Below the pieces are notes generated by a model that saw only the letters and a program-made list of their open reading frames with translations, had not been told where the DNA came from and made no database searches. A DNA stretch of 44,452 nucleotides from an uncultured Bacilli bacterium (GTDB taxonomy: Bacteria > Bacillota_I > Bacilli_A > RF39 > UBA660), in contig CALVVK010000001.1 of assembly GCA_944363825.1 (NCBI GenBank), positions 1 through 44,452 on the forward strand. The letters are read 5' to 3'. The translations under genes and the position numbers were made by a program. Below, piece after piece: positions 1 to 30,294 of this stretch (its first letter is position 1; each line of letters starts with the position of its first letter).

Positions 1-1323
1 GATGATGGAGCATATCAAGAAAGTAATGTATTTAGTAATTTAAATGATAATACCGAATATACAATAAATGTTAAAGCAGTAGATACAGAAGGTCGAGAAT
101 CAAATCCATATGAACTACAAGTAACAACAGATGAATATATTTTACCAACAATAAGTAATGTAACAGCAAGTAGTACATCAGATAGTATTACATTAAATGT
201 AACTGCTAGTGGTGGAACAGGAAGTATTGTAACATATCATTACTCAAAAGATGATGGGTTAAATTATGAAACAAGCAGTAGTCCAAATTACACATTTAAT
301 GACTTAACAAGTGATGCCACATTTTATTTAAAAGTTTATGTAACTGATAGTAATGGTAGAACTAGTGGGGAATATAGTACAAGTATAGCAACGGAACCAA
401 ATATAACTTATTTGGCTGATTATATCAAGGATACAGTTTATACAGGAACTGATGGCGAAAATGGATTATATTATCATGATGGAGTAGGAACATACACCAA
501 TGCGGCCCAGGAAGCAGGAGATAATTCCTACAGATATGCAGGTGCTAATCCCAATAATTATGTTTGCTTTGCAAGTGATGCAATGACATGTCCGAATGAT
601 AATTTGTACCGAATAATTGGGGTGTTTGGTGATCAAGTGAAATTAATCAAATATGATTATGCAACAAATACACATTTAGGTAGTAATGGGTCGTATGATT
701 CAACAGTGGCATCAAGAAATTATAGTACATACAAGGGAACTTTGAGTACATTATATCTGTATTCCTGGAATAGTAGCACAAGTACAAACGTATGGAGTGG
801 AAGTAATTTAAATACGGTAAATTTAAATACAAATTATATAAATTACTTAAATGGAATAAACTCCAAGTGGAATGACATGATAGAAACGACAAACTGGCAA
901 GTCGGAGGGAATGCATATCAAAATATCTATAATGTAACAGTAAAAAATACATATGCAAATGAAATAGTGAGTCCCGCAACAAACACAACATATAGTGCCA
1001 AAATAGGCTTAATGTATGTGAGTGATTATGGTTATGCAGCAAGTCCAAGTGCATGGACATTAGCAATGAGTGCTTATAATAATAGTACTGCAATTAGTAA
1101 TAACTGGATGTATATGGGAGGCTTTGATTGGACAATTTCCCGTAGATCGAACGATACGTACAATGCATTTATCGTTTATGATGCTGGCTATGTGAACAGC
1201 TACATCGGCGACAGCGTTTCCGCCGGCTTCGGCGTTCGTCCTACATTTTATCTGAAGTCTAATGTTGCAATAACCTCTGGTGATGGCTCGGCTTCAAATC
1301 CTTACAAAGTAGAATTATCTTAG
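1..1323 (+). CDS. Cell-surface protein, 5'-truncated by the window edge: Fn3-like repeats followed by a C-terminal lectin-like domain ending in ...GVRPTFYL. Paralog of 26199..27866.
   Basis: Frame 1 is open from base 1; the track's TTG 'start' at 412 is internal. Two Fn3-like repeats are visible (NVTASSTSDSITLNV...YTFNDLTSDATFYLKVYVTDSNG). The stretch 415-650 is roughly 85-90% identical at the nucleotide level to 26812-27047. Confidence 0.75.
   Translation, partial: DDGAYQESNVFSNLNDNTEYTINVKAVDTEGRESNPYELQVTTDEYILPTISNVTASSTSDSITLNVTASGGTGSIVTYHYSKDDGLNYETSSSPNYTFNDLTSDATFYLKVYVTDSNGRTSGEYSTSIATEPNITYLADYIKDTVYTGTDGENGLYYHDGVGTYTNAAQEAGDNSYRYAGANPNNYVCFASDAMTCPNDNLYRIIGVFGDQVKLIKYDYATNTHLGSNGSYDSTVASRNYSTYKGTLSTLYLYSWNSSTSTNVWSGSNLNTVNLNTNYINYLNGINSKWNDMIETTNWQVGGNAYQNIYNVTVKNTYANEIVSPATNTTYSAKIGLMYVSDYGYAASPSAWTLAMSAYNNSTAISNNWMYMGGFDWTISRRSNDTYNAFIVYDAGYVNSYIGDSVSAGFGVRPTFYLKSNVAITSGDGSASNPYKVELS
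1138..1242 (+). other. GC-rich NNC/NNT-codon block: candidate DGR variable region, copy A
   Basis: About 51% G+C by hand count inside an AT-rich gene. Runs of NNC codons are present (AAC AGC TAC ATC GGC GAC AGC ... TCC GCC GGC TTC GGC). The 3' tail 1219-1242 contains no adenine. Confidence 0.5.
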
Positions 1324-3448: not shown

Positions 3449-3790
3449 CTAAATTAAATTTAATACGTCACCAATTTTAAGATTAATACTAGTATTATTG
3501 GGTAAAACTAAAATACTGGTATTTTCTTTTTCTTCGTAAGTATTTATTATTTTAAATTTAGGGATATTACGATAAATATGGGTAATGGCATTTTTAGAAT
3601 TAATAACTAAATAATCATTTTTGTTACTTAGGAAGGTATTAAAGATAGTTTTATTTTTATATAATTTAATTTCTTTATTACGATATTTAATTTTATCAAT
3701 AAAGTTATTTATTAGATATACTTCTTCTAATTTGGCATTTATTAAAATATTCATACAAAATAATATGTTTAATAATTGCAAATAATGCAA
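3449..3790 (-). CDS. Hypothetical protein; weakly supported ORF
   Basis: 113-codon ORF with a TTG start at 3790 or an ATG at 3754. No clear RBS. Asn/Ile/Lys-rich with no recognisable motif. Confidence 0.35.
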   Translation of the reverse strand: MHYLQLLNILFCMNILINAKLEEVYLINNFIDKIKYRNKEIKLYKNKTIFNTFLSNKNDYLVINSKNAITHIYRNIPKFKIINTYEEKENTSILVLPNNTSINLKIGDVLNLI

Positions 3791-3823
3791 TTTGATGGTA
3801 TTATTTTATTGTAGGAGGAAGAT

Positions 3824-4429
3824 ATGAAGAATAATACAAAAATAGTTTTGTTATGTGTGCTATCGATATTAATAGTAATTGCCATGGTGGTAGGAATAAC
3901 CTATTCATTTATGCAAACACATGTTGATGAGAGTATGGTTACGGAAGTAACTCTTACGAGTTGTGCTAAATTAACTTTAAATGATAGTGATATTTCAATT
4001 AGTTTAGAAAATACTAGTCCGATAAGTAAGAATAGGGCGTTGCAAACAACACCATATACTTTTAGGGTTACATCTTCTTGTGAAGGGAGTATAAATTATA
4101 ATTTGTATTTAGCAACTTTAAATAGTAATACCTTAGATGCTAGTAATATTCGGTATATGATAACAGAACATGGGAATACAAACATTATAACTGAGGGCAT
4201 ACTTAGTGATGCTAGTAATGCATTATCTGAATTTAGTGCTGAGGAACAAGCCCAATTAAATAGTGGAATTAATGGGACATTTGCAACTATTTATAAAGTA
4301 TATACTAATAGTTTAGCAGGTGGAGAGACAAATGAATACGACTTATATTTATATGTTGATGAGACTATAACTGCAACGGATACGATGAATAAAACATTTA
4401 CAGTTGGGGTTGCTGCCAAAGCAAGTTAA
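3824..4429 (+). CDS. Secreted or membrane-anchored protein with an N-terminal hydrophobic segment; possibly a SipW-type signal / TasA-camelysin-like protein
   Basis: GGAGG RBS. The N-terminus KIVLLCVLSILIVIAMVVGITYSFMQT loosely resembles the G-T-[FY]-A-[YF]-F SipW-cognate signal end. The family call is uncertain. Confidence 0.6.
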   Translation: MKNNTKIVLLCVLSILIVIAMVVGITYSFMQTHVDESMVTEVTLTSCAKLTLNDSDISISLENTSPISKNRALQTTPYTFRVTSSCEGSINYNLYLATLNSNTLDASNIRYMITEHGNTNIITEGILSDASNALSEFSAEEQAQLNSGINGTFATIYKVYTNSLAGGETNEYDLYLYVDETITATDTMNKTFTVGVAAKAS

Positions 4430-10219: not shown

Positions 10220-10939
10220 ATGCATTTTTTAAGCACAAAATTGAATAATAAGTTATTTGTTTTGGGATTATTGATATTATTAAGTGTTATTATCTTGGGT
10301 TTAAGTTGTTACTTAATATATGTAAGTAATAATCAAGAAGAATGTTTTTGTGATGAGTTTGAAAATATTCTTGTAACTCCGGATGATTCAACCAGTGAAG
10401 ATGTTGATGCTAAAGAAAATAAGCCTTTATATGTTGAAGTAAAGGGTGCAGTTTTAAACCCTGGGGTATTTGCAGTTAGTGATGAAAATATTATCAATGA
10501 TGTTATTGCAATGGCTGGGGGATTTACTAATAATGCTTATACTGCTAATATTAATTTGAGTAAAAGAGTAACTGATGAATTAGTTATTTATGTTTATACT
10601 GATTCGGAATATCAAAAGAATAATTCAAATGGTAATAGTAGTAAAAAAGAAGATAATTCTTATACAATTGATAAGTATATTGATAGTTCTGTAAGTATTA
10701 TTACAAGTAGTTCTAGTGATAATGTTAGTAATTCGAGTGAATCTGGAAGTTTAATTAATATTAATACGGCTTCTAGTGAGCAACTAACAACCTTACCCGG
10801 GATTGGTGATGCAAAAGCCAATAATATAATTGCTTATCGGACAGAAGTTGGCTATTTTAAGACTATTGAAGAGTTAAAAAATGTAAATGGTATTGGTGAT
10901 GCAACATTTGAACAACTTAAAAGCCTTATTACAGTATAA
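10220..10939 (+). CDS. comEA: Competence protein ComEA (membrane-anchored HhH DNA receptor)
   Basis: N-terminal TM segment, SLBB-like region YVEVKGAVLNPGVF, and C-terminal HhH INTASSEQLTTLPGIGDAKANNIIAYR. The ATG at 10220 has an AAGGAGG RBS. Confidence 0.85.
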   Translation: MHFLSTKLNNKLFVLGLLILLSVIILGLSCYLIYVSNNQEECFCDEFENILVTPDDSTSEDVDAKENKPLYVEVKGAVLNPGVFAVSDENIINDVIAMAGGFTNNAYTANINLSKRVTDELVIYVYTDSEYQKNNSNGNSSKKEDNSYTIDKYIDSSVSIITSSSSDNVSNSSESGSLININTASSEQLTTLPGIGDAKANNIIAYRTEVGYFKTIEELKNVNGIGDATFEQLKSLITV

Positions 10940-12983
10940 TAAGTTATTCGTTATTTTATTTATATTTATTTTCTTTTATAGTTTGTTTTTTACCCAAATA
11001 ATAAAGTATCATTCAAAGTATCAAGGGAATGAAACCGAAATTATGGGGACTATTAAAGAATATAGTATTAATGGTAATAAATTGAAAATGACTATTGAGG
11101 CACGGGAAGATATAATTGCTACTTATTATATTTCTTCTTTAGAAGAAAAGGAATATTTGTTAAAAAATGTGGGGATTGGCAAAACTATTTATTTAAATGG
11201 AACTTTAAATGAACCAATGAATAATACAGTTCCTAATAACTTTAATTATAAAAATTATTTATATAATCAGCATATTTATTATTTATTTAGTGTCGATAGT
11301 TATAAAATACGTGATGATAATAATTTTTTCGATAAAATTAAAGATTATATCATAAAACGGGCTTATAATTTAGAAAATGGCGATTATTTATTGGTTTTAG
11401 TTCTAGGTGATAATGCCTTAATCAGTAGTGATGAATATAATAATTATCAAACTAATGGGACATCACATTTACTCGCGATTTCTGGTTCCCATGTGACAGT
11501 ATTATTGGCTATTTTTTCATTTTTATTGCGCCGTTTTAAAGAAATACCTAAGTTATTGATATTGAGTGTAATTTTAATGTTTTTTGGCTATCTAACTAAC
11601 TTCCAGGCAGCTTTAAATAGGGCTATTTTATTTTTTATAATTAATCAAATAAATAAAATAAAGGATCTTAAGTTTTCTAATTTGCAAGTTTTATTCCTGA
11701 CGGCTTTTTTGTTAGTTTTCTTTAATCCCTTTATTATTTATGATTTGGGATTTATTTATTCCTTTGTTATATGTGGTGGGATAATGTATTTTAAAGATAA
11801 GATTACTGGTAATTATTTTACTAAATTGTTTAAACTTAGTCTGATTTCTTTTTTATTTAGTCTTCCGATAAGTGCTTATATCAATTATGAAGTAAATATT
11901 TCATCGATTCTAGTTAATATGGTTTTTGTTCCTTGGATATCAATTATTGTTTTTCCTTTATCGTTACTTACCTTTATATTTCCTATATTAAGTCCCATAT
12001 TTAGTATAACTTTACAAATAACGGAGTTTTTAAATAACTTATTTACTAAATTTAGTTTATTTATTAATATTCCGAAGATGGCTTTGTTAGTAGTTATTTT
12101 ATTATTTATTTTTTTGTTACTAAGTAAAAATAATTATCACTATATTACCTGTTTTATAACGATTTTAATTGTTATCAAATTAGTTCCTAAATTTAATAAT
12201 AATACGTATGTTTATTATTTAGATGTTGGGCAAGGGGATAGTATAGTTTTAATTTCACCCCACCAAAGGGAAGTGGTCATGATTGATACTGGTGGGAAGA
12301 TAAGTTATTCGCAAGAAGAATGGGAGCAAAGCAATAAAAATTATAATTTAAGTGCTAATACTATTAAGTTTTTAAAAAGTTTAGGTATAACTAATATCGA
12401 TTATTTGATAATTACCCATGGTGATATGGATCATGCAGGAGAAGCCATTAATATTGTTAATAATATTAATGTCAGCCATATTTTATTTAATAATGATAAT
12501 TATAATGAATTAGAACTAGAAATTATTGATACTCTTAAGAATAAAGATATTAAATATTTAAAGAATATTAAAAGTATTAATTTTGGTAATACTAAATTAT
12601 ATTTTTTAAATGATACTTTATATGATAATGAAAATGATAATTCTACTGTAATTTATTACCCAATTCAAGGCAAGAAATTTCTATTTATGGGTGATGCTGG
12701 AGTTGGTGTGGAAAAGAATTTGGTGAGTAAATATAATTTAGAAAATATAACTATTTTAAAAGTTGGTCATCATGGTAGTAAAACTAGCACTAGTGAAGAA
12801 TTTATCACTGAAATTAAGCCCAAGTATGCTATTATATCAGTAGGGCGAAATAATAGGTATAATCATCCGAGCAAAGAAGTAATAGATACTTTAAATAAAC
12901 AAAAAGTATATCGAACGGATACGATGGGAAGTATTATGTTTGAGATAAATAATAAATTAAAAATAACAACATTTCCACCATAG
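10887..12983 (+). CDS. comEC: DNA internalisation competence protein ComEC/Rec2
   Basis: Polytopic competence domain plus a C-terminal metallo-beta-lactamase (YLDVGQGDSIVL...HGDMDHAGE...GHHGS). The start is uncertain (10887 or 10899, or a downstream alternative) and overlaps the comEA 3' end. Confidence 0.85.
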   Translation: MVLVMQHLNNLKALLQYNKLFVILFIFIFFYSLFFTQIIKYHSKYQGNETEIMGTIKEYSINGNKLKMTIEAREDIIATYYISSLEEKEYLLKNVGIGKTIYLNGTLNEPMNNTVPNNFNYKNYLYNQHIYYLFSVDSYKIRDDNNFFDKIKDYIIKRAYNLENGDYLLVLVLGDNALISSDEYNNYQTNGTSHLLAISGSHVTVLLAIFSFLLRRFKEIPKLLILSVILMFFGYLTNFQAALNRAILFFIINQINKIKDLKFSNLQVLFLTAFLLVFFNPFIIYDLGFIYSFVICGGIMYFKDKITGNYFTKLFKLSLISFLFSLPISAYINYEVNISSILVNMVFVPWISIIVFPLSLLTFIFPILSPIFSITLQITEFLNNLFTKFSLFINIPKMALLVVILLFIFLLLSKNNYHYITCFITILIVIKLVPKFNNNTYVYYLDVGQGDSIVLISPHQREVVMIDTGGKISYSQEEWEQSNKNYNLSANTIKFLKSLGITNIDYLIITHGDMDHAGEAINIVNNINVSHILFNNDNYNELELEIIDTLKNKDIKYLKNIKSINFGNTKLYFLNDTLYDNENDNSTVIYYPIQGKKFLFMGDAGVGVEKNLVSKYNLENITILKVGHHGSKTSTSEEFITEIKPKYAIISVGRNNRYNHPSKEVIDTLNKQKVYRTDTMGSIMFEINNKLKITTFPP

Positions 12984-16375: not shown

Positions 16376-16388
16376 GGAAATGGTGTGT

Positions 16389-16985
16389 ATGAATAACTAT
16401 GATAAAATTTTGAATTATGCTAAAGAAAATAATGGATACATTACAGCAAGTGAAGCTGAAAGATTAGTTATTAATAGTAGTTCGTTTTTAAGTAATTTAG
16501 TAGTAAACAAAAAGTTGGAAAAAGTTGGAGCGGGTGTTTATAAATTACCTGATTATCCGATTGATAATTTTTATATTTTATCCAAATGCAGTAAAAATAT
16601 GTGTTATTCTCATGCTACGGCTTTATATTTACACAATATGTCTGATAGAATTCCGTTAGTTTATGATGTTACTGTTTCATATAATTATAGTGGAAATTTA
16701 TTGAATAATGAAAATGTAACTTTGCACTATGTTAAAGATGAGATTTTTGAACTAGGGATTATTGATATTAAAACTGTTAATAATTTAACAGTTAAATGTT
16801 ATGATCTTGAAAGAACTATCTGTGATATTATTAAAGATAAAAATTGTATGGATAAAGAAATTTATTCAAAAGCCTTAAAAGAATATGCTAAACTTAAGGA
16901 TAAAGATATTTTGAAATTGGTTAAATATGCTAGATTGTTAAATATTGAAAAAGAAGTTGTTGAGTTAATGGAGGTGTTATTATAA
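16389..16985 (+). CDS. abiEi: AbiEi-family antitoxin / transcriptional regulator (type IV TA)
   Basis: The N-terminal wHTH (ILNYAKENNGYITASEAERL) and the size are typical. It is immediately followed by the AbiEii gene, with TAA and ATG abutting. Confidence 0.75.
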   Translation: MNNYDKILNYAKENNGYITASEAERLVINSSSFLSNLVVNKKLEKVGAGVYKLPDYPIDNFYILSKCSKNMCYSHATALYLHNMSDRIPLVYDVTVSYNYSGNLLNNENVTLHYVKDEIFELGIIDIKTVNNLTVKCYDLERTICDIIKDKNCMDKEIYSKALKEYAKLKDKDILKLVKYARLLNIEKEVVELMEVLL

Positions 16986-17825
16986 ATGAATTCAGACAAA
17001 TTAAATGCTATTATTAAGAAAAAAACTAATGGTAACAATACTTTGGCACATCATCTTCATCAGATGTTTTTCTTTGAACATGTATTGATGAGATTAGAAA
17101 AGAGTAAATATAAAGATAATATTATTTTAAAGGGTGGTGTTTTACTTTCCTCAATTATAGGGGAGGATTTGCGAACTACTAAAGATATGGATACTACTTT
17201 AAAGAGTTTACCGTTAAATATGGATTCTATTAGAAATATCTTTGAAGAAATATTATCTATTGATATTAATGATAATGTAAAGTTTGAAATTGTTAGTATT
17301 AAAGATATTAGATTGGATAGTTTATATGGTGGTTTTAGAATAAATGTTAAAGGTACTTTTGATAAAATAAGAACTAATTTTTTTATTGAGATAACTACTG
17401 GTGATGTAATTACACCAAGAGAGATAGAGTATCAATATAATTCTATATTTGAAGATAAAAAAATAAATATTATGGCATATACTGTTGAAACAGTAATTGC
17501 TGAAAAGTTTAATAGTATTATTAGTAGAAATATAACTTCTACAAGGGCTAAAGACTTTTATGATGTATATATGCTATTGAACGAACATAAAAATAGTATT
17601 AATAATAAAAACTTAGCTATCGCGATAGAAAATACTTTTAAAAATAGAAATACAGAGTTTAATATTGATAATTTTAAAGAAATTGTAGAAATGATGAAAG
17701 ATAGTAATATTTTAAGAAAAGTATTTGCTGATTATCAAAGTAAATTAGAATATACTAAAGAAGTAAGTTTTGATGATACAATTAACTCAGTTAATGAACT
17801 AATCAGTATATTAGAAACTCAATGA
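16986..17825 (+). CDS. abiEii: AbiEii / DUF1814 nucleotidyltransferase toxin
   Basis: LKGGVLLS...TKDMDT nucleotidyltransferase motif, 279 aa, and the operon partner of AbiEi. Confidence 0.8.
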   Translation: MNSDKLNAIIKKKTNGNNTLAHHLHQMFFFEHVLMRLEKSKYKDNIILKGGVLLSSIIGEDLRTTKDMDTTLKSLPLNMDSIRNIFEEILSIDINDNVKFEIVSIKDIRLDSLYGGFRINVKGTFDKIRTNFFIEITTGDVITPREIEYQYNSIFEDKKINIMAYTVETVIAEKFNSIISRNITSTRAKDFYDVYMLLNEHKNSINNKNLAIAIENTFKNRNTEFNIDNFKEIVEMMKDSNILRKVFADYQSKLEYTKEVSFDDTINSVNELISILETQ

Positions 17826-26111: not shown

Positions 26112-26140
26112 TTGACAATGCCTTTTAAAAATGCTAATCT
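26112..26140 (+). promoter_or_regulatory. Candidate promoter of the surface-protein gene
   Basis: TTGACA, 17 nt, TAATCT. Confidence 0.4.
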
Positions 26141-26198
26141 TAAAATAATAGAGGGGTATTCTCAATACCTATTGTGTGTTTTAGGAGTGGAAGTATAC

Positions 26199-27866
26199 AT
26201 GAAATTTAAGAGAATTATCATAGTTGTTATTTTTATTCTTGGCTTTATCAGTGGCTATGGGATAGTTAATATAAATAAAGATAGGGCAGTAATTAGTGAT
26301 AATTATAAGATAGCAAGTAAAAATAATGCCTTAACGATGATGTTAGAAACAGATATCGATTCTAATGAATATGAAGTTGCAACTTCTATTGAGTGGCCAA
26401 CATCTGGCTATATATTTAATGCGGAGATGTCCGCATGTGAACGTGGCGGCACACTTTCCTGGGATAGTGAGAATAATCGAGTTGTAATGGCATCAGGAAG
26501 TGCCGATAAGTGCTATGTGTATTTCGATCGGTATACAACAGTTTCAATTACTAATGTAACAGCCAGCAATATAACAAATAGTAGTATTACCTTAATGGTG
26601 GAAGCAACTGTTTTTGATAGTCCTATAACTAATTATTATTATAGTAAAGATAATGGTTTAAGTTATGAAGAAAGTACTAGTAATACTTATACGTTTAGTG
26701 GCTTAGAACAGGGAGCAGAATATAATTTTAAAGTTTATGCTGTCGATAGTAATGGGGTAAGTTCCAATATTTATTCATTACGGGCATCTACGAAAGATAT
26801 CATTTATTTAGCCGATTATATCAAAGATACGGTATATACAGGTACAGATGGGGATAATGGATTATATTACCATGACGGATCAGGTTCATACACTAATGCT
26901 GCACAGGAAGCAGGAGATAATTCCTACAGATATGCAGGTGCTAATCCAAATAATTATGTTTGCTTTGCCAGTGATGCAGCAAGTTGTCCAAATGATAATT
27001 TATATCGGATAATAGGAGTATTTGGAGATCAAGTAAAATTAATAAAAAATACAAGTTTGGGAAATTATTATTGGAGCGGATCAAGTTCTAATCGGAGAAA
27101 TACATGGAGTAATAGTACATTAAATACAGGAACATTAAATGGAACATATTTAAACGGACTTGGAACAACATGGAGTGCTATGATTGAAACGACAACATGG
27201 AAAGTAGGGGGAGGAAATTATAGTCGTTTAAGAGATAGTAGAGTAAAAACAGCATATAACTATGAATTAGGAAATAACAGTTCAAGTACAACATATAATG
27301 CAAAAATAGGGTTAATGTATGTAAGTGATTATGGATATGCAGCAAGTCCAGCAAACTGGAGAACAACATTAATTAATTATGATAATGATACAAATCGCAA
27401 TAATAACTGGATGTATATTGGAGGATATGACTGGACAATTTCCCGCTATTCGGACAATGCGACTAGTGCGTTCGTCGTGAATAATTCAGGCAGTGTGAGC
27501 AACCTCTACGTCTACTACAACTTCGCCGACGGCTACGGCCTCGGCGTGCGCCCGTCCTTTTATCTTTATCCTTGGGTTGGCATTGAAAGTGGTAATGGCT
27601 CAGTAGAAAGTCCCTATCGGTTAACACTACCTGAATTAGTGGAGTTTTCTTTTGCTGGTACAACCTATTATTTAGAAGATGGTATGACTTGGGAAGAGTG
27701 GGTTAATAGTATTTATAATGTCGATGGTCTTGTAGTATCGGAAGGTAATATATTTAATTCAACGCTTACTAGTAAACTATCGATAACGGGAAGTGGTGAG
27801 TTTATTAAGGCAACTGATGTAATAGATTATAATAATAGTTCTACTTGGTATTGGTATAATATTTAA
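26199..27866 (+). CDS. Membrane-anchored surface protein: N-terminal TM, one Fn3-like domain, a lectin-like domain ending ...GVRPSFYL, and an ~85-aa C-terminal extension. Candidate DGR target.
   Basis: The ATG at 26199 follows an AGGAG RBS (MKFKRIIIVVIFILGFISGYG). Fn3 motif: ITNVTASNITNSSITLMV...YNFKVYAVDSNG. Paralogous to 1..1323. Confidence 0.85.
   Translation: MKFKRIIIVVIFILGFISGYGIVNINKDRAVISDNYKIASKNNALTMMLETDIDSNEYEVATSIEWPTSGYIFNAEMSACERGGTLSWDSENNRVVMASGSADKCYVYFDRYTTVSITNVTASNITNSSITLMVEATVFDSPITNYYYSKDNGLSYEESTSNTYTFSGLEQGAEYNFKVYAVDSNGVSSNIYSLRASTKDIIYLADYIKDTVYTGTDGDNGLYYHDGSGSYTNAAQEAGDNSYRYAGANPNNYVCFASDAASCPNDNLYRIIGVFGDQVKLIKNTSLGNYYWSGSSSNRRNTWSNSTLNTGTLNGTYLNGLGTTWSAMIETTTWKVGGGNYSRLRDSRVKTAYNYELGNNSSSTTYNAKIGLMYVSDYGYAASPANWRTTLINYDNDTNRNNNWMYIGGYDWTISRYSDNATSAFVVNNSGSVSNLYVYYNFADGYGLGVRPSFYLYPWVGIESGNGSVESPYRLTLPELVEFSFAGTTYYLEDGMTWEEWVNSIYNVDGLVVSEGNIFNSTLTSKLSITGSGEFIKATDVIDYNNSSTWYWYNI
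27441..27557 (+). other. GC-rich NNC/NNT-codon block: candidate DGR variable region, copy B, with an adenine-free IMH-like 3' end (27537-27557)
   Basis: About 58% G+C by hand count. Sixteen consecutive codons ending in C span 27498-27545. The 3' end GGCCTCGGCGTGCGCCCGTCC contains no A. Confidence 0.55.
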
Positions 27867-27949: not shown

Positions 27950-29524
27950 ATGCAAGAAACTTTAAATGAGACTCCTAAAAATAATGGCATTTTAGATATA
28001 TTAAAGACTCCATTTATAGTTTTATACAATATCATTGTTTATGCAGGTGTTGGTATTAAGGCTACATTCTTTGATTTATGGGTAAATTTATATAATGGGG
28101 CTAGTTATCAAGTAGATAAAACTTATCGGCATACGAAACAACAATTCATGGAAGAAGAAGATAAGATCTATGAAATGACGAAAAAGAAACCGAAGAAAGA
28201 AAAAGTATATAAATATAGTGCTAAAGTATTGGCCAAACTCGAAGAAGAAAAACGCGAATTAATGGTTGATTTGCAAAATGCTGGGGCGACGAGAAGTAAG
28301 ACACCTCATACATATCTTTATAAAGTTAAAGATACGCATGGTAGAATAATTAAAGGAACTATGAATGGTTTAAGTAAATTAGATATTAATTCTTATTTAC
28401 TTAGTGAAGGTTATGAAGTATATAGTATTAAAACTTCACCTTTTATAGATTTTGTTTATAAAGATTCTAGTTTTTTTGGTAAAAAAATGTCTAATAAGGA
28501 CTTAATATTTTGGCTTACCCAATTATCTACTTATATTAAAGCAGGATTAACATTAAATGAGTCGATTAAAATATTAACTACCCAAATGAAAGGGAATAAA
28601 GCTAGAACGACGGCTTTTAAAGCAATTTCTTATGAACTTACTTTGGGTGAATCTTTTTCTAGTGCTTTAGAAAAACAAGGTTCGATGTTTCCAGCATTAT
28701 TGATTAATATGATTAAAGCAGCTGAGGCCAGTGGGACATTAGTAGAAACGTTAGATGATATGGCAAATTATTACACGGAAATAAATGAAACTCATCGCCA
28801 AATGATAAGTGCGATGACTTATCCAACAATAATTACGGTCTTTGCTATTGGTGTTGTCATATTCATACTTATTTATGTGGTACCACAATTTACGGAAATC
28901 TATGCGACAAATAATACAGAAATAACCGGAATAACTAAAATTGTTGTTGATGCTAGTGCTTTTATTCAACGGGATTATATGTTAATTATAGGTATTATTT
29001 TAGGGACTGTTGTAACAGTAATGGTTTTATATAAAACTGTTAAAGCGTTTAAAACTGCTGTTCAAATATTTTTAATGCATATTCCAGTTATTAAAAATAT
29101 AATTATTTATAATGAATTAACGGTATTTTCGAAAACATTTGCATCTTTACTTCGTAATAATGTATTTATAACGGATAGTATGGATATTTTGAGTAGAATT
29201 ACAAATAATGAAATATATAGAGCAATTATGTATAAGACAATTAATAATATAATTAAAGGGGAAAAAATATCAGAAGCATTTAAAGATCACTGGGCTATAC
29301 CAAATGTTGCTTATTATATGATTGTTACAGGGGAATCAACTGGTGATCTTGCTAATATGATGCAAAAGGTAAGCGAATATTATCAATTATTGCATAAAAA
29401 TATTATTAATAACTTAAAATCGTTTATTGAACCAATCATGATTTCCTTTTTGGCGGTGATTGTTGGAATAATAATAATTGCTGTTATTGGGCCAATGTTT
29501 GATATGTATAATCAAATTGCTTAG
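27950..29524 (+). CDS. Type IV pilus/competence platform protein (GspF/PilC/ComGB family) with an ~120-aa N-terminal extension
   Basis: Two T2SSF repeats are present. The usual N-terminal motif (YLYKVKDTHGRIIKGTMNG) begins only at about residue 122. The 27950 start has an AAGGAAGG RBS. Confidence 0.85.
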   Translation: MQETLNETPKNNGILDILKTPFIVLYNIIVYAGVGIKATFFDLWVNLYNGASYQVDKTYRHTKQQFMEEEDKIYEMTKKKPKKEKVYKYSAKVLAKLEEEKRELMVDLQNAGATRSKTPHTYLYKVKDTHGRIIKGTMNGLSKLDINSYLLSEGYEVYSIKTSPFIDFVYKDSSFFGKKMSNKDLIFWLTQLSTYIKAGLTLNESIKILTTQMKGNKARTTAFKAISYELTLGESFSSALEKQGSMFPALLINMIKAAEASGTLVETLDDMANYYTEINETHRQMISAMTYPTIITVFAIGVVIFILIYVVPQFTEIYATNNTEITGITKIVVDASAFIQRDYMLIIGIILGTVVTVMVLYKTVKAFKTAVQIFLMHIPVIKNIIIYNELTVFSKTFASLLRNNVFITDSMDILSRITNNEIYRAIMYKTINNIIKGEKISEAFKDHWAIPNVAYYMIVTGESTGDLANMMQKVSEYYQLLHKNIINNLKSFIEPIMISFLAVIVGIIIIAVIGPMFDMYNQIA

Positions 29525-29538
29525 AATTGGGGTTTTTT

Positions 29539-30294
29539 ATGGCAGTATTATTGTTTTTCATCGGTGCAATTTTGGGTTCTTTTTACCTTGTAATAGGAAC
29601 AAGATTACCCAAGGGTGAGGATGTATTATTTTCTAGAAGTAAATGTGATAACTGTGGTCATGTATTAAAATGGTATAATTTAATACCTTTATTTTCATAT
29701 GTCATTCAACGGGGTAAATGTACTTTTTGTCATAAAAAAATTGCTAGTGAGCACTTCATTGTGGAATTAGCAACCGGTTTGTTATTTGTTTTTACTTATT
29801 ATATTTTTCCCTCTGGTTATTATTTTTATGGTGGTCTAATTATTAGTTCATTATTAATTATTATTTTTGTTAGTGATTTTAAATATATGGTTATATTAGA
29901 TTCTCCGTTAATTGTAACAGGGATACTATTTATTATCTTAAAATTAATATATTTTGGCTTTAAAGCCACATTAAGTAGTTTTTTATCTGGTATTGCTTTA
30001 TTTTTGGTTATGCTTTTATTGTTTCAAGTCGGCAAATTACTCTTCAAAAAAGAGGCTTTGGGTGGGGGAGATATTAAACTTTCCTTTATTATTGGGTTAA
30101 TTTTAGATTTTAATTTAGGTCTCACGGCTTTAGTTTTGTCGACATTTGTTGCCTTGCCATATGCTTTAGCATCTTTAGAAATTAAAAAAAATAATGAATT
30201 TCCGTACGGGCCATTTCTCGCCGGTTCATTATTTATAGTATTTTATAATTATGATAAATTTTTATTATTACTAGAATATTTATTTGCTTTTTAA
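29539..30294 (+). CDS. Prepilin peptidase (A24 family, PilD/ComC)
   Basis: Zinc-binding N-terminal motif CDNCGHVLKWYNLIPLFSYVIQRGKCTFC and catalytic GGGDIKL. The start is the ATG at 29539 or the TTG at 29527. Confidence 0.88.
   Translation: MAVLLFFIGAILGSFYLVIGTRLPKGEDVLFSRSKCDNCGHVLKWYNLIPLFSYVIQRGKCTFCHKKIASEHFIVELATGLLFVFTYYIFPSGYYFYGGLIISSLLIIIFVSDFKYMVILDSPLIVTGILFIILKLIYFGFKATLSSFLSGIALFLVMLLLFQVGKLLFKKEALGGGDIKLSFIIGLILDFNLGLTALVLSTFVALPYALASLEIKKNNEFPYGPFLAGSLFIVFYNYDKFLLLLEYLFAF

Follow-up and report, generated by a model that had tools for sequence, protein, structure and literature searches.

The 44,452-nt stretch of contig CALVVK010000001.1 from an uncultured RF39 bacterium of the Bacilli (the whole stretch is called here the window) raises the question of how a 117-nt GC-rich block came to lie within an otherwise AT-rich gene, here called target gene B (26196..27866, + strand, from the list of open reading frames, ORFs), and whether this block is the variable region (VR) of a gene diversified by a diversity-generating retroelement (DGR). 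In the reading that we consider probable, the block is the VR of a remote DGR target, written in trans from a template repeat (TR) by a reverse transcriptase (RT), both of which lie outside the contig. The window itself has neither a TR nor an RT gene, and the TR of a homologous locus on another contig, L087, fits the block. This copy of gene B may or may not still be rewritten.

The G+C content at 27441-27557 is 58.1% against 29.5% for the whole window, and in a scan across all 44,452 bases this was the top-scoring 117-nt window for G+C, with sharp compositional boundaries. Codons ending in C make up 24 of the 39 codons in the block vs 45 of the 546 in the rest of the gene (Fisher p=6.7e-15), and codons ending in A 1/39 and 181/546, respectively (p=7.8e-6). 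For the 16 consecutive C-ending codons at 27498-27545 the probability by chance is ~4.5e-18, given that 8.2% of the codons outside the block end in C, and an adenine-free 21-mer, GGCCTCGGCGTGCGCCCGTCC, is located at 27537-27557. The encoded residues are scaffold residues and those reachable from AAY codons (Y standing for C or T), and nothing else. The compositional observation, from which the preliminary description of this DNA had started, is confirmed as far beyond chance. The other features it had listed, i.e. the sixteen C-ending codons, the NNT and NNC codons, the 21 nt without adenine, and the position of the block before the terminal G-V-R-P and after W-T-I-S, were all present where it had placed them; in the ORF of 556-584 amino acids (aa) the block is flanked by W-T-I-S-R and G-V-R-P-S-F-Y-L.

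The block belongs to a pattern that recurs throughout a large protein family. At least 8,000 database relatives of the globular region of the gene B protein were found, and 519 stretches encode relatives in the species-representative genome collection, which does not include the species of the window and in which the best homolog is 57-65% identical. Nearly all of these stretches come from gut metagenome-assembled genomes (MAGs) of "uncultured Bacilli/Tenericutes" and Candidatus Onthocola, and a single MAG often carries 7-11 copies. Conservation in the alignment of the proteins is strong except from W-T-I-S-R to G-V-R-P, where nothing but the scaffold A-F-x-V…G-x-V remains. At the VR position, roughly half of the paralogs are GC-rich (G+C fraction 0.48-0.62 vs 0.30-0.37 just upstream), and the rest are AT-rich. 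In the GC-rich copies of different genomes the codons TCC CGC / TCG / GCG TTC / GTG / GGT / GTG / GTG / GGC GTG CGC CCG TCC stand in register; these scaffold codons are adenine-free and kept even at synonymous sites, and they are separated by NNT or NNC codons. The residues K, E, Q, M and W are unreachable from AAY codons, and they account for 7 of 841 residues in 30 GC-rich VRs vs 50 of 625 in 21 AT-rich paralog segments (p=1e-12); A-ending codons number 31/841 and 174/625 in the same two sets (p=4e-41). The GC-rich pattern is the one expected from repeated copying of an AAY-rich, otherwise adenine-free template, and decay once copying has ceased would erase it. Many paralogs in the relatives are clearly decayed, i.e. 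AT-rich and with K, E, Q, M or W residues.

Templates of this kind were identified next to several homologs of gene B. A search with an nhmmer profile of 13 VRs located adenine-rich template copies ~250-450 nt downstream of the VR. When VR and TR were compared, 22 of 27 mismatches fell at template adenines in L031 and 17 of 24 in L017; the mismatches at template adenines numbered 21 in the core of L039, 14 in L083, 30 in L084 and 19 in L085. In L090, L091 and L092 there were 13, 14 and 11 mismatches at adenines, respectively, and 0 elsewhere, and the L087 TR is identical to its own VR at 78 of 98 positions, with 20 mismatches at adenines and 0 elsewhere. Downstream of the TR follow genes for a small MutS-domain-I protein, an Avd-like protein and an RT with the motifs IGNxxSQ…YMDD (read in L039 and L068), all on one strand. 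The MutS_I matches in the cassettes had E-values of 1.3e-6 and 1.8e-5, and the genes of the L087 cassette matched MutS_I (1.8e-5), bAvd (3.7e-4, below the Pfam cut-off) and RVT_1 (5.8e-21). The RT family is abundant, with 3,495 matches at E<=1e-10. The earlier assignment of the block as a DGR-type VR thus holds, in that homologous segments in relatives pair with adenine-rich TRs beside MutS-like, Avd-like and RT genes.

The flanks of the TRs are conserved, with GGGTAATCTT on the 5′ side and GAGACCTTTAT…GTTCTAG…ATAAGATTAAGG on the 3′ side. VR and TR are the same through GGCGTGCGCCCG and then part, the VRs continuing with TCCTTTTAT and the TRs with AGACCTTTAT (L031, L039, L083-L087, L090), which bears out the proposed closure of the VR by an element like the initiation of mutagenic homing (IMH) sequence. 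By analogy with known DGRs, the GGCGTGCGCCCG/AGACCTTTAT boundary behaves as an IMH/IMH* pair and may have a role in directionality.

The DGR of this family is active, and its activity is sporadic. The loci L090 and L091, which come from different samples, have identical TRs and flanks that are 100% and 99.95% identical, and their VRs differ only at TR adenines (TR AAT GCA to ACT GCG vs GTT GCC). DGR-like VR differences were also present between the proteins P0252 and P0253, and among the clusters of relatives at 90% identity such differences occurred in two clusters only. Fits at a distance within the same MAG, on other contigs, were found for the L031 TR with the L016 VR and for the L039 TR with the L008 VR.

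Additional features were observed in these cassettes. The L092 VR (L092:514-579) is ~21 nt shorter than its TR (L092:743-819, identical to the L090 TR), the difference lying in an AAC-rich tract, and VR and TR differ in length by 3 nt in L031 and L083; these differences within cognate pairs suggest additional indel diversity from slippage of the RT or from template jumping. The TR of L068 (L068:12335-12395) is truncated and has lost the middle ~50 nt, so that 5′ ATTCCCACAG…AACAAT is fused to GCGAATGCGGTCCGTCGAGACC; its RT is intact and its VR has 59% G+C. A conserved ORF of 79-85 aa overlaps the 3′ end of the RT gene (L039:13223-13462, L087:2910-3158, L090:5067-5324, L084:6088-6339, L085:2783-3031). 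It is present after the RT in L039 and L084-L093, has no Pfam match and was not called in L083 (L068 was outside this comparison), and could represent an accessory gene, so far undescribed, of this lineage of DGRs. Between hairpin and TR, several cassettes have a second GC-rich element able to form a stem (L031:~925-965, L083:~3768-3815, L068:~12270-12310, L039:~10870-10905, L017:~10900-10935), possibly a structured portion at the 5′ side of the DGR RNA. No Rfam matches at gathering thresholds were returned for the window and five cassette loci.

Which of these templates fits gene B? The VR (27438..27554, + strand), defined by codon statistics, the family alignment and the match to the L087 TR, extends from ATTTCCCGC at 27438 to …CGCCCG at 27554 according to the L087 alignment. 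Its adenine-free scaffold codons are TCC CGC, TCG, GCG, GCG TTC, GTG, GGC, GTG, GTC, GGC…, with NNT and NNC codons between them. The IMH-like 3′ boundary (27543..27566, + strand) consists of GGCGTGCGCCCG, common to VR and TR, followed in the VR by TCCTTTTATCTT; the GGCCTC of the adenine-free stretch is part of the VR, and the invariant boundary element begins later, at 27543. Over 98 aligned positions, which is the basis of all VR counts against the L087 TR (the same TR is found in L088 and L089), the gene B VR is identical to the template at 80, with 17 mismatches at adenines and 1 elsewhere (AGA vs TAT), and all its third-position T/C choices agree with the template. The probability of at least 17 of 18 mismatches falling at adenines by chance is 7.5e-7, and in 476 TR×VR control comparisons, which had a median of 17 non-adenine mismatches, a value of <=1 was reached by cognate pairs only.

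The species context of the L087-type cassette is consistent with this fit. Eight listed sample assemblies, from which nine contigs were read, contain the exact PilC protein encoded downstream of gene B, and in two of these, BRZ_GB and ONAT22-1_SAMEA6814455, it is found together with an L087-type cassette; the contig coverage in BRZ_GB is 4.53× for PilC and 4.57× for the L087 RT. From these co-occurrences, the cassette and the window may belong to the same genome. Other candidates were set aside: the majority of TRs of other genomes fit the window VR poorly, and the RT matches P0182, P0211 and P0209, from assemblies present in NCBI only, led to good cassettes, which belong to other genomes and have TRs that do not fit it. 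A search of the Joint Genome Institute (JGI) metagenome contigs with the VR/TR scaffold pattern returned 0 matches, even for the window VR, as the species is absent from that set. The preliminary description had predicted a template copy next to an RT gene elsewhere in the genome: a TR that adjoins an RT gene and fits by its adenine-directed substitutions exists in L087, but it is located on a contig other than the window and is shorter than the VR.

Under the remote-target reading, an adenine-rich TR RNA would be reverse-transcribed by the DGR-type RT, aided by the Avd-like and MutS-domain-I-like proteins, and copied unfaithfully at template adenines. The complementary DNA (cDNA) would replace the stretch of the target gene between ATTTCCCGC and GGCGTGCGCCCG, by which AAT and AAC codons of the template would become NNT and NNC and the adenine-free scaffold codons would be copied faithfully; the local excess of G+C and of C-ending codons and the scarcity of A-ending codons would follow from these two effects. 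The best candidate for the source is a cassette of the L087 type, with target, hairpin, TR, MutS-like, Avd-like and RT genes and small ORF in this order. The C-terminal end of a DUF6273-like, lectin-like domain would carry the diversified residues, on strands and in a loop, with the domain held away from the membrane by a fibronectin type III (fn3) stalk, and given this position the function would presumably be variable ligand binding at the cell surface.

The hairpin of the cassettes bears on whether gene B can be a target. Right after the target stop codon in the relatives, a conserved GC-rich hairpin is found with a 15-bp interrupted stem, a 5-nt loop and two compensatory pairs, and it belongs to no Rfam family. 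It is present behind all cassette-adjacent targets and behind eight targets that are not cassette-adjacent in the fetched DNA, and the covariance model R1 places it after 23 target genes (sites include L031:825-875, L039:10768-10816, L068:12175-12225, L083:3666-3716, L087:664-714 and L090:2978-3028). In the phage BPP-1, a hairpin downstream of the VR is required for efficient homing (PMC3240598), and the hairpin described here is probably the counterpart, in this family, of the target-site hairpin or cruciform of DGRs. Another GC-rich inverted repeat was observed 10-30 nt past the VR in the coding tail (…SGGGSGS…PY) of targets without the hairpin, at L023:~1805-1850 and L004:~1092-1140 and in L007, L033 and L075, and it may be an alternative target-site structure.

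Several results weigh against the reading of gene B as a remote target. Neither the window nor the syntenic locus L082 yielded a TR, a flank motif of a TR, or a gene for an RT, Avd or MutS-like protein in blastn, nhmmer, tblastn and motif searches, and the search for a TR copy within the window returned only a paralog (1098-1304 / 1129-1253). The family hairpin is missing downstream of the gene B VR according to both model R1 and folding, the strongest local fold there being -12 kcal/mol. Compared with the L087 TR, the VR has a surplus of 18 nt, equivalent to two extra AAC and two extra AAC-GGC units. Because of this surplus and the one non-adenine mismatch, the exact L087 allele was not the writer; we propose that the block was written from the L087 template lineage, either from an allele of greater length or with slippage of the RT in the AAC/GGC repeats, and a length mismatch between TR and VR is also seen in the cognate pair of L092. 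The evidence that the L087-type cassette belongs to the window's species is good but circumstantial, not proof. The VR is 100% identical in the window, BRZ_BM and ONAT22-1_SAMEA6814451, which are from different samples, and most 90%-identity clusters of relatives are without VR variation, several of them having an invariant VR where 26-30 other columns vary. A single TR, finally, does not account for both the window VR and the VR of a close relative, as described below.

Many of these results would also be expected if the VR were a fossil, written by a DGR in the past and frozen since, recently inherited in its present form after the gene became untargetable or the matching cassette was lost. 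The lack of a cassette in the 44-kb contig, the absence of either hairpin type downstream of the VR, its identity in three assemblies and the shorter length of the sole matching TR all agree with this, as does the frequency of decayed paralogs in the relatives, which indicates that loss of targeting is common in the family; the paralogous gene A of the window itself looks part-way to decay. We nevertheless regard a fossil as unlikely. All scaffold codons of the block are still GC-rich and adenine-free in a genome with ~80% A/T at third positions, and any freezing must therefore have been recent. The 5′ (ATTTCCCGC) and 3′ (GGCGTGCGCCCG) homologies to the L087 TR are intact, and the L087 cassette co-occurs with the strain. 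The hairpin is moreover not universal among live-looking copies: 29 of 43 GC-rich VRs are without an R1 hairpin, including that of L016, which fits a TR of its own genome.

A comparison of strains bears on a second alternative. The close relative L082 is 96.9% identical to the window over the shared 18 kb, and its VR is bounded by exactly the same ends. From the 3′ boundary (27543) onward the two sequences are 100% identical, and the VR just upstream differs. The L082 VR is identical to the L087 TR at 64 of 98 positions, with 24 mismatches at adenines and 10 elsewhere, differs from the window VR by an indel of 18 nt as well as in scaffold and third positions, and is invariant in its three cluster members. 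Derivation of both VRs from one TR was rejected on the basis of the 10 non-adenine mismatches and the third-position differences. The expected variation among strains, limited to the first two codon positions, was not observed, the block being invariant among the three assemblies and the relative's VR coming from a different template. Gene B as a whole (26196-27866 vs L082:10001-11650) is ~90% identical, compared with 96.9% for the surrounding 18 kb, and P0014 has the same N-terminus as the gene B protein with a C-terminal domain that is only 68% identical; these sequence comparisons indicate recombination among paralogs at this locus.

Such recombination, or gene conversion, could exchange a block that selection on the protein or mRNA maintains without any retroelement, and the reduced identity of gene B, the mixed relationships of P0014 and the scaffold and third-position differences of the L082 VR all speak in favour of this explanation. 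We consider it very improbable here, as protein selection cannot account for adenine-free codons at synonymous sites or for variable codons that are exclusively NNY, non-coding adenine-rich copies adjoin RT genes in the relatives, and 17 of the 18 differences between the block and the L087 template are at adenines. The sharp compositional boundaries might suggest the insertion or mis-assembly of a short stretch of foreign GC-rich DNA within an AT-rich gene, but this is hardly credible for a block that is in frame, encodes conserved strands of the domain, is carried by three independent assemblies and has counterparts of the same kind in dozens of paralogs in many genomes.

In addition to the strains compared, contigs of six other samples with an identical or near-identical PilC begin at window positions 27687, 27709, 27862 and 27912 (L096, L097, L099, L100/L101). 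An interpretation of the starts at 27687 and 27709 as VR heterogeneity was rejected, since these breaks are situated 130-150 nt beyond the VR, in paralog-shared sequence; the breaks near the 3′ end of gene B are likely repeat-induced assembly breaks.

The protein encoded by gene B consists of an anchor, an fn3 stalk, a DUF6273-like domain and a C-terminal extension. Alternative upstream starts on the + strand are TTG at 26112 and ATG at 26118, giving a protein of 556-584 aa depending on the start; a protein identical to the gene B product (P0001) exists in public assemblies, and the syntenic ortholog in L082 begins at the methionine of MKFKR. The translated basic and hydrophobic N-terminal segment MKFKRIIIVVIFILGFISGYGIVNINKD (26196..26279, + strand), of a similar kind across the homologs, is a putative signal or membrane anchor, which would place the protein on the cell surface. 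The fn3 domain (26547..26762, + strand; residues 118-189 of 556 aa) was identified by Pfam PF00041 (E=5.6e-9). The globular domain with the VR at its C-terminal end (26808..27626, + strand) was recognised from AlphaFold models and structure matches; this region of ~270 aa has no Pfam match. The extension ELVEFSFAGTTYYLEDGMTWEEWV… that follows (27627..27863, + strand) was defined by alignment, occurs in a subset of paralogs only and is situated where other targets have their stop codon and then the GC-rich hairpin.

The AlphaFold model of 352 residues had a predicted local distance difference test (pLDDT) score of 82.4 and a predicted template modelling (pTM) score of 0.80, and the 189-residue model of the VR-bearing half a pLDDT of 76.6. 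The sole significant match in the Protein Data Bank (PDB) was 9qa6, the immunoglobulin A (IgA) peptidase of Thomasclavelia ramosa, both for the 352-residue model (E=8.6e-9, 316 columns) and for the VR-bearing half (E=3.2e-5, 25% identity, 178 columns); the structure search does not report which 9qa6 residues aligned. In the viral library BFVD the best Foldseek matches were phage DUF6273 proteins (E=5e-9 to 5e-4), some of them receptor-binding or tail-fibre proteins. At the sequence level the window protein had no match to the PF19789 (DUF6273) model at E<=0.01, PF19789 was matched by 6 of 50 close homologs (best 1.7e-5) and by some precomputed annotations, and searches of the PDB with the family profile and with P0056 returned no matches. 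According to these models, the window domain shares the fold of the DUF6273 proteins. The IgA peptidase's N-terminal domain is annotated as DUF6273 (PMC12402451) and has a C-type-lectin-like core resembling Legionella Lcl (PMC12237041). No significant direct structural similarity to Mtd, TvpA, FGE or canonical C-type lectin-like domains (CTLDs) was detected, for which reason the label "lectin-like" relies on published comparisons. The lectin-type fold proposed in the preliminary description is accordingly supported by way of 9qa6 and the phage DUF6273 proteins, published as C-type-lectin-like, but not by a direct match to Mtd, TvpA or FGE. In the model, the VR occupies strands 208-214, 220-224, 230-234 and 245-253 together with a low-confidence loop at 237-243, to which the extra 18 nt of the window VR map.

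The window contains a second member of the family, the paralogous gene A (1..1323, + strand, its 5′ end beyond the contig), with fn3 repeats and a DUF6273-like domain that is 62% identical to that of gene B. Its VR-equivalent (1129..1253, + strand) has 47-51% G+C, was matched by nhmmer and is 66% identical to the gene B block in blastn; its scaffold codons have in part drifted to A/T-ending synonyms (GCA TTT, GTT, CGT CCT). Compared with the L087 TR it is identical at 72/98 positions, with 17 mismatches at adenines and 9 elsewhere, and with these 9 non-adenine mismatches gene A was rejected both as a TR and as a co-target of the L087 template. The gene A VR is probably older or derived from a different template, and gene A itself resembles either a target on its way to decay or one that another template has written. 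Behind its stop codon, at about 1335-1366, is an AT-rich hairpin, CTTTTACGG…CCGTAAAAG.

Right after gene B, with 83 nt between its stop and the start of PilC, genes for a T2SSF/PilC-like protein and an A24 prepilin peptidase are located (27950-30294), and this order is kept in L082. Further upstream in the window, an AbiEii toxin gene (16380-17825, Pfam E=1.8e-37) is preceded by a gene for a 201-aa partner. The locus L082 holds an AbiEi/AbiEii pair there (L082:206-1641), and as the blastn match between the window and L082 starts only just after the AbiEii gene (~17846), the Abi pair of the window appears to be a diverged allele of a defence or toxin-antitoxin module. A tyrosine recombinase gene (Phage_integrase, E=1.8e-52) is situated near the right end of the contig (42703-43605, - strand). 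The product of the region 3824-4429 has 201 aa and an N-terminal anchor (…GITYSFMQTHVDES…) and matches no Pfam family; the N-termini of P0008 and P0030, which are members of the family of gene B, are similar, of the "ATYAYFQA" type.

DGRs with MutS-like (MSL) and Avd accessory genes have been described as "Architecture D" by Wu et al. 2018 (PMC5758913), and Msl-bearing DGRs of Bacteroides are known (bioRxiv 10.1101/2024.11.15.621889). The cassettes of the gene B homologs resemble Architecture D in having TR, MutS-domain-I protein, Avd-like four-helix protein and DGR-type RT downstream of the target; they differ in their hosts, RF39-type gut Bacilli with small genomes, and in the extra 79-85-aa ORF of most complete cassettes, and the window is without these genes. 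In the literature searched, no mention of DGRs together with RF39 was found. As in the Treponema DGR, one cassette serves an adjacent target and remote paralogous targets with common VR ends, which for the window gene would apply by extension; unlike here, the Treponema system uses HRDC and not MSL, and has an FGE-type CLec target, to which no significant structural match was obtained.

DUF6273 targets of DGRs have been described in gut phages as tentaclins (PMC10743442) and in Faecalibacterium prophages (PMC11792537), the C-terminal end of the domain carrying the VR, and the phage DUF6273 fold has been published as C-type-lectin-like with a hypermutated hairpin. The window protein has the same fold according to the structure search, the same position of the VR, and fn3/Ig-like domains alongside. 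Unlike the phage targets, it is chromosomal, cellular and anchored at the N-terminus, with up to ten paralogs or more in a genome; tentaclins carry their lectin domain N-terminally, and the window protein does not reach the PF19789 model. The peptidase structure 9qa6, the only solved one that is significantly similar, is annotated as DUF6273 with the CTLD core, but unlike the window protein it forms part of a metallopeptidase and has no known diversification by a DGR, and there is no match to it at the sequence level.

The likeness to the Mtd/TR/Avd/Brt system of BPP-1 (PMC3240598) extends to adenine-specific TR-to-VR substitution, to the GC-rich 3′ boundary that is identical in TR and VR and is followed by a short discriminating stretch, and to a GC-rich hairpin downstream of the VR in those targets of the family that adjoin a cassette. 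This family hairpin lies ~60-85 nt past the VR and has an interrupted stem of 15 bp with a 5-nt loop (TTTAC/CTTGC/CTAGC), unlike hairpins of the BPP-1 type, which have 7-10 bp stems and GRNA tetraloops and are 4-34 bp away; no such hairpin is present in the window gene.

The kind of DGR, the MSL accessory architecture and the DUF6273 target domain are thus already published, and the understanding of the DGR mechanism is unchanged by these findings; new are the RF39-type Bacilli as a host group and the large chromosomal paralog family. For the detection of DGRs, the locus indicates that in an AT-rich genome a target is recognisable by composition alone, from adenine-free GC-rich scaffold codons combined with NNY codons. 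This approach works also when the cassette is on another contig, a case that cassette-centred DGR finders miss in fragmented MAGs.

For the organisms, it means that the RF39-type gut Bacilli, which are poorly known, uncultured and of small genome size, join the hosts of MutS-like-type DGRs. Their targets, anchored fn3-DUF6273 proteins with a relationship to the receptor-binding modules of phages, make up a large family of paralogs and are plausible adhesins or receptors at the interface with the host or with phages. The presence of live-looking and decayed copies in one family offers possible material for studying the gain and loss of DGR targets. We suggest tentatively, as a possibility with the odds still against it, that in these bacteria a chromosomal MSL-type DGR writes in trans into at least ten anchored fn3-DUF6273 genes per genome. 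Beyond this, length variation may be added to the usual adenine substitutions by slippage of the RT on AAC/GGC repeats (as in L092, and in the 18 surplus nt of the window VR), one gene may be overwritten from alternative TR alleles or cassettes, which would explain VRs from different templates in strains 96.9% identical over 18 kb, and paralogs may cycle between "live" (GC-rich) and "decayed" (AT-rich) states. If this is true, the family would constitute a cell-surface repertoire system and not one hypervariable gene, with one of its members placed, in this strain, beside the type IV pilus/secretion genes for pilC and prepilin peptidase.

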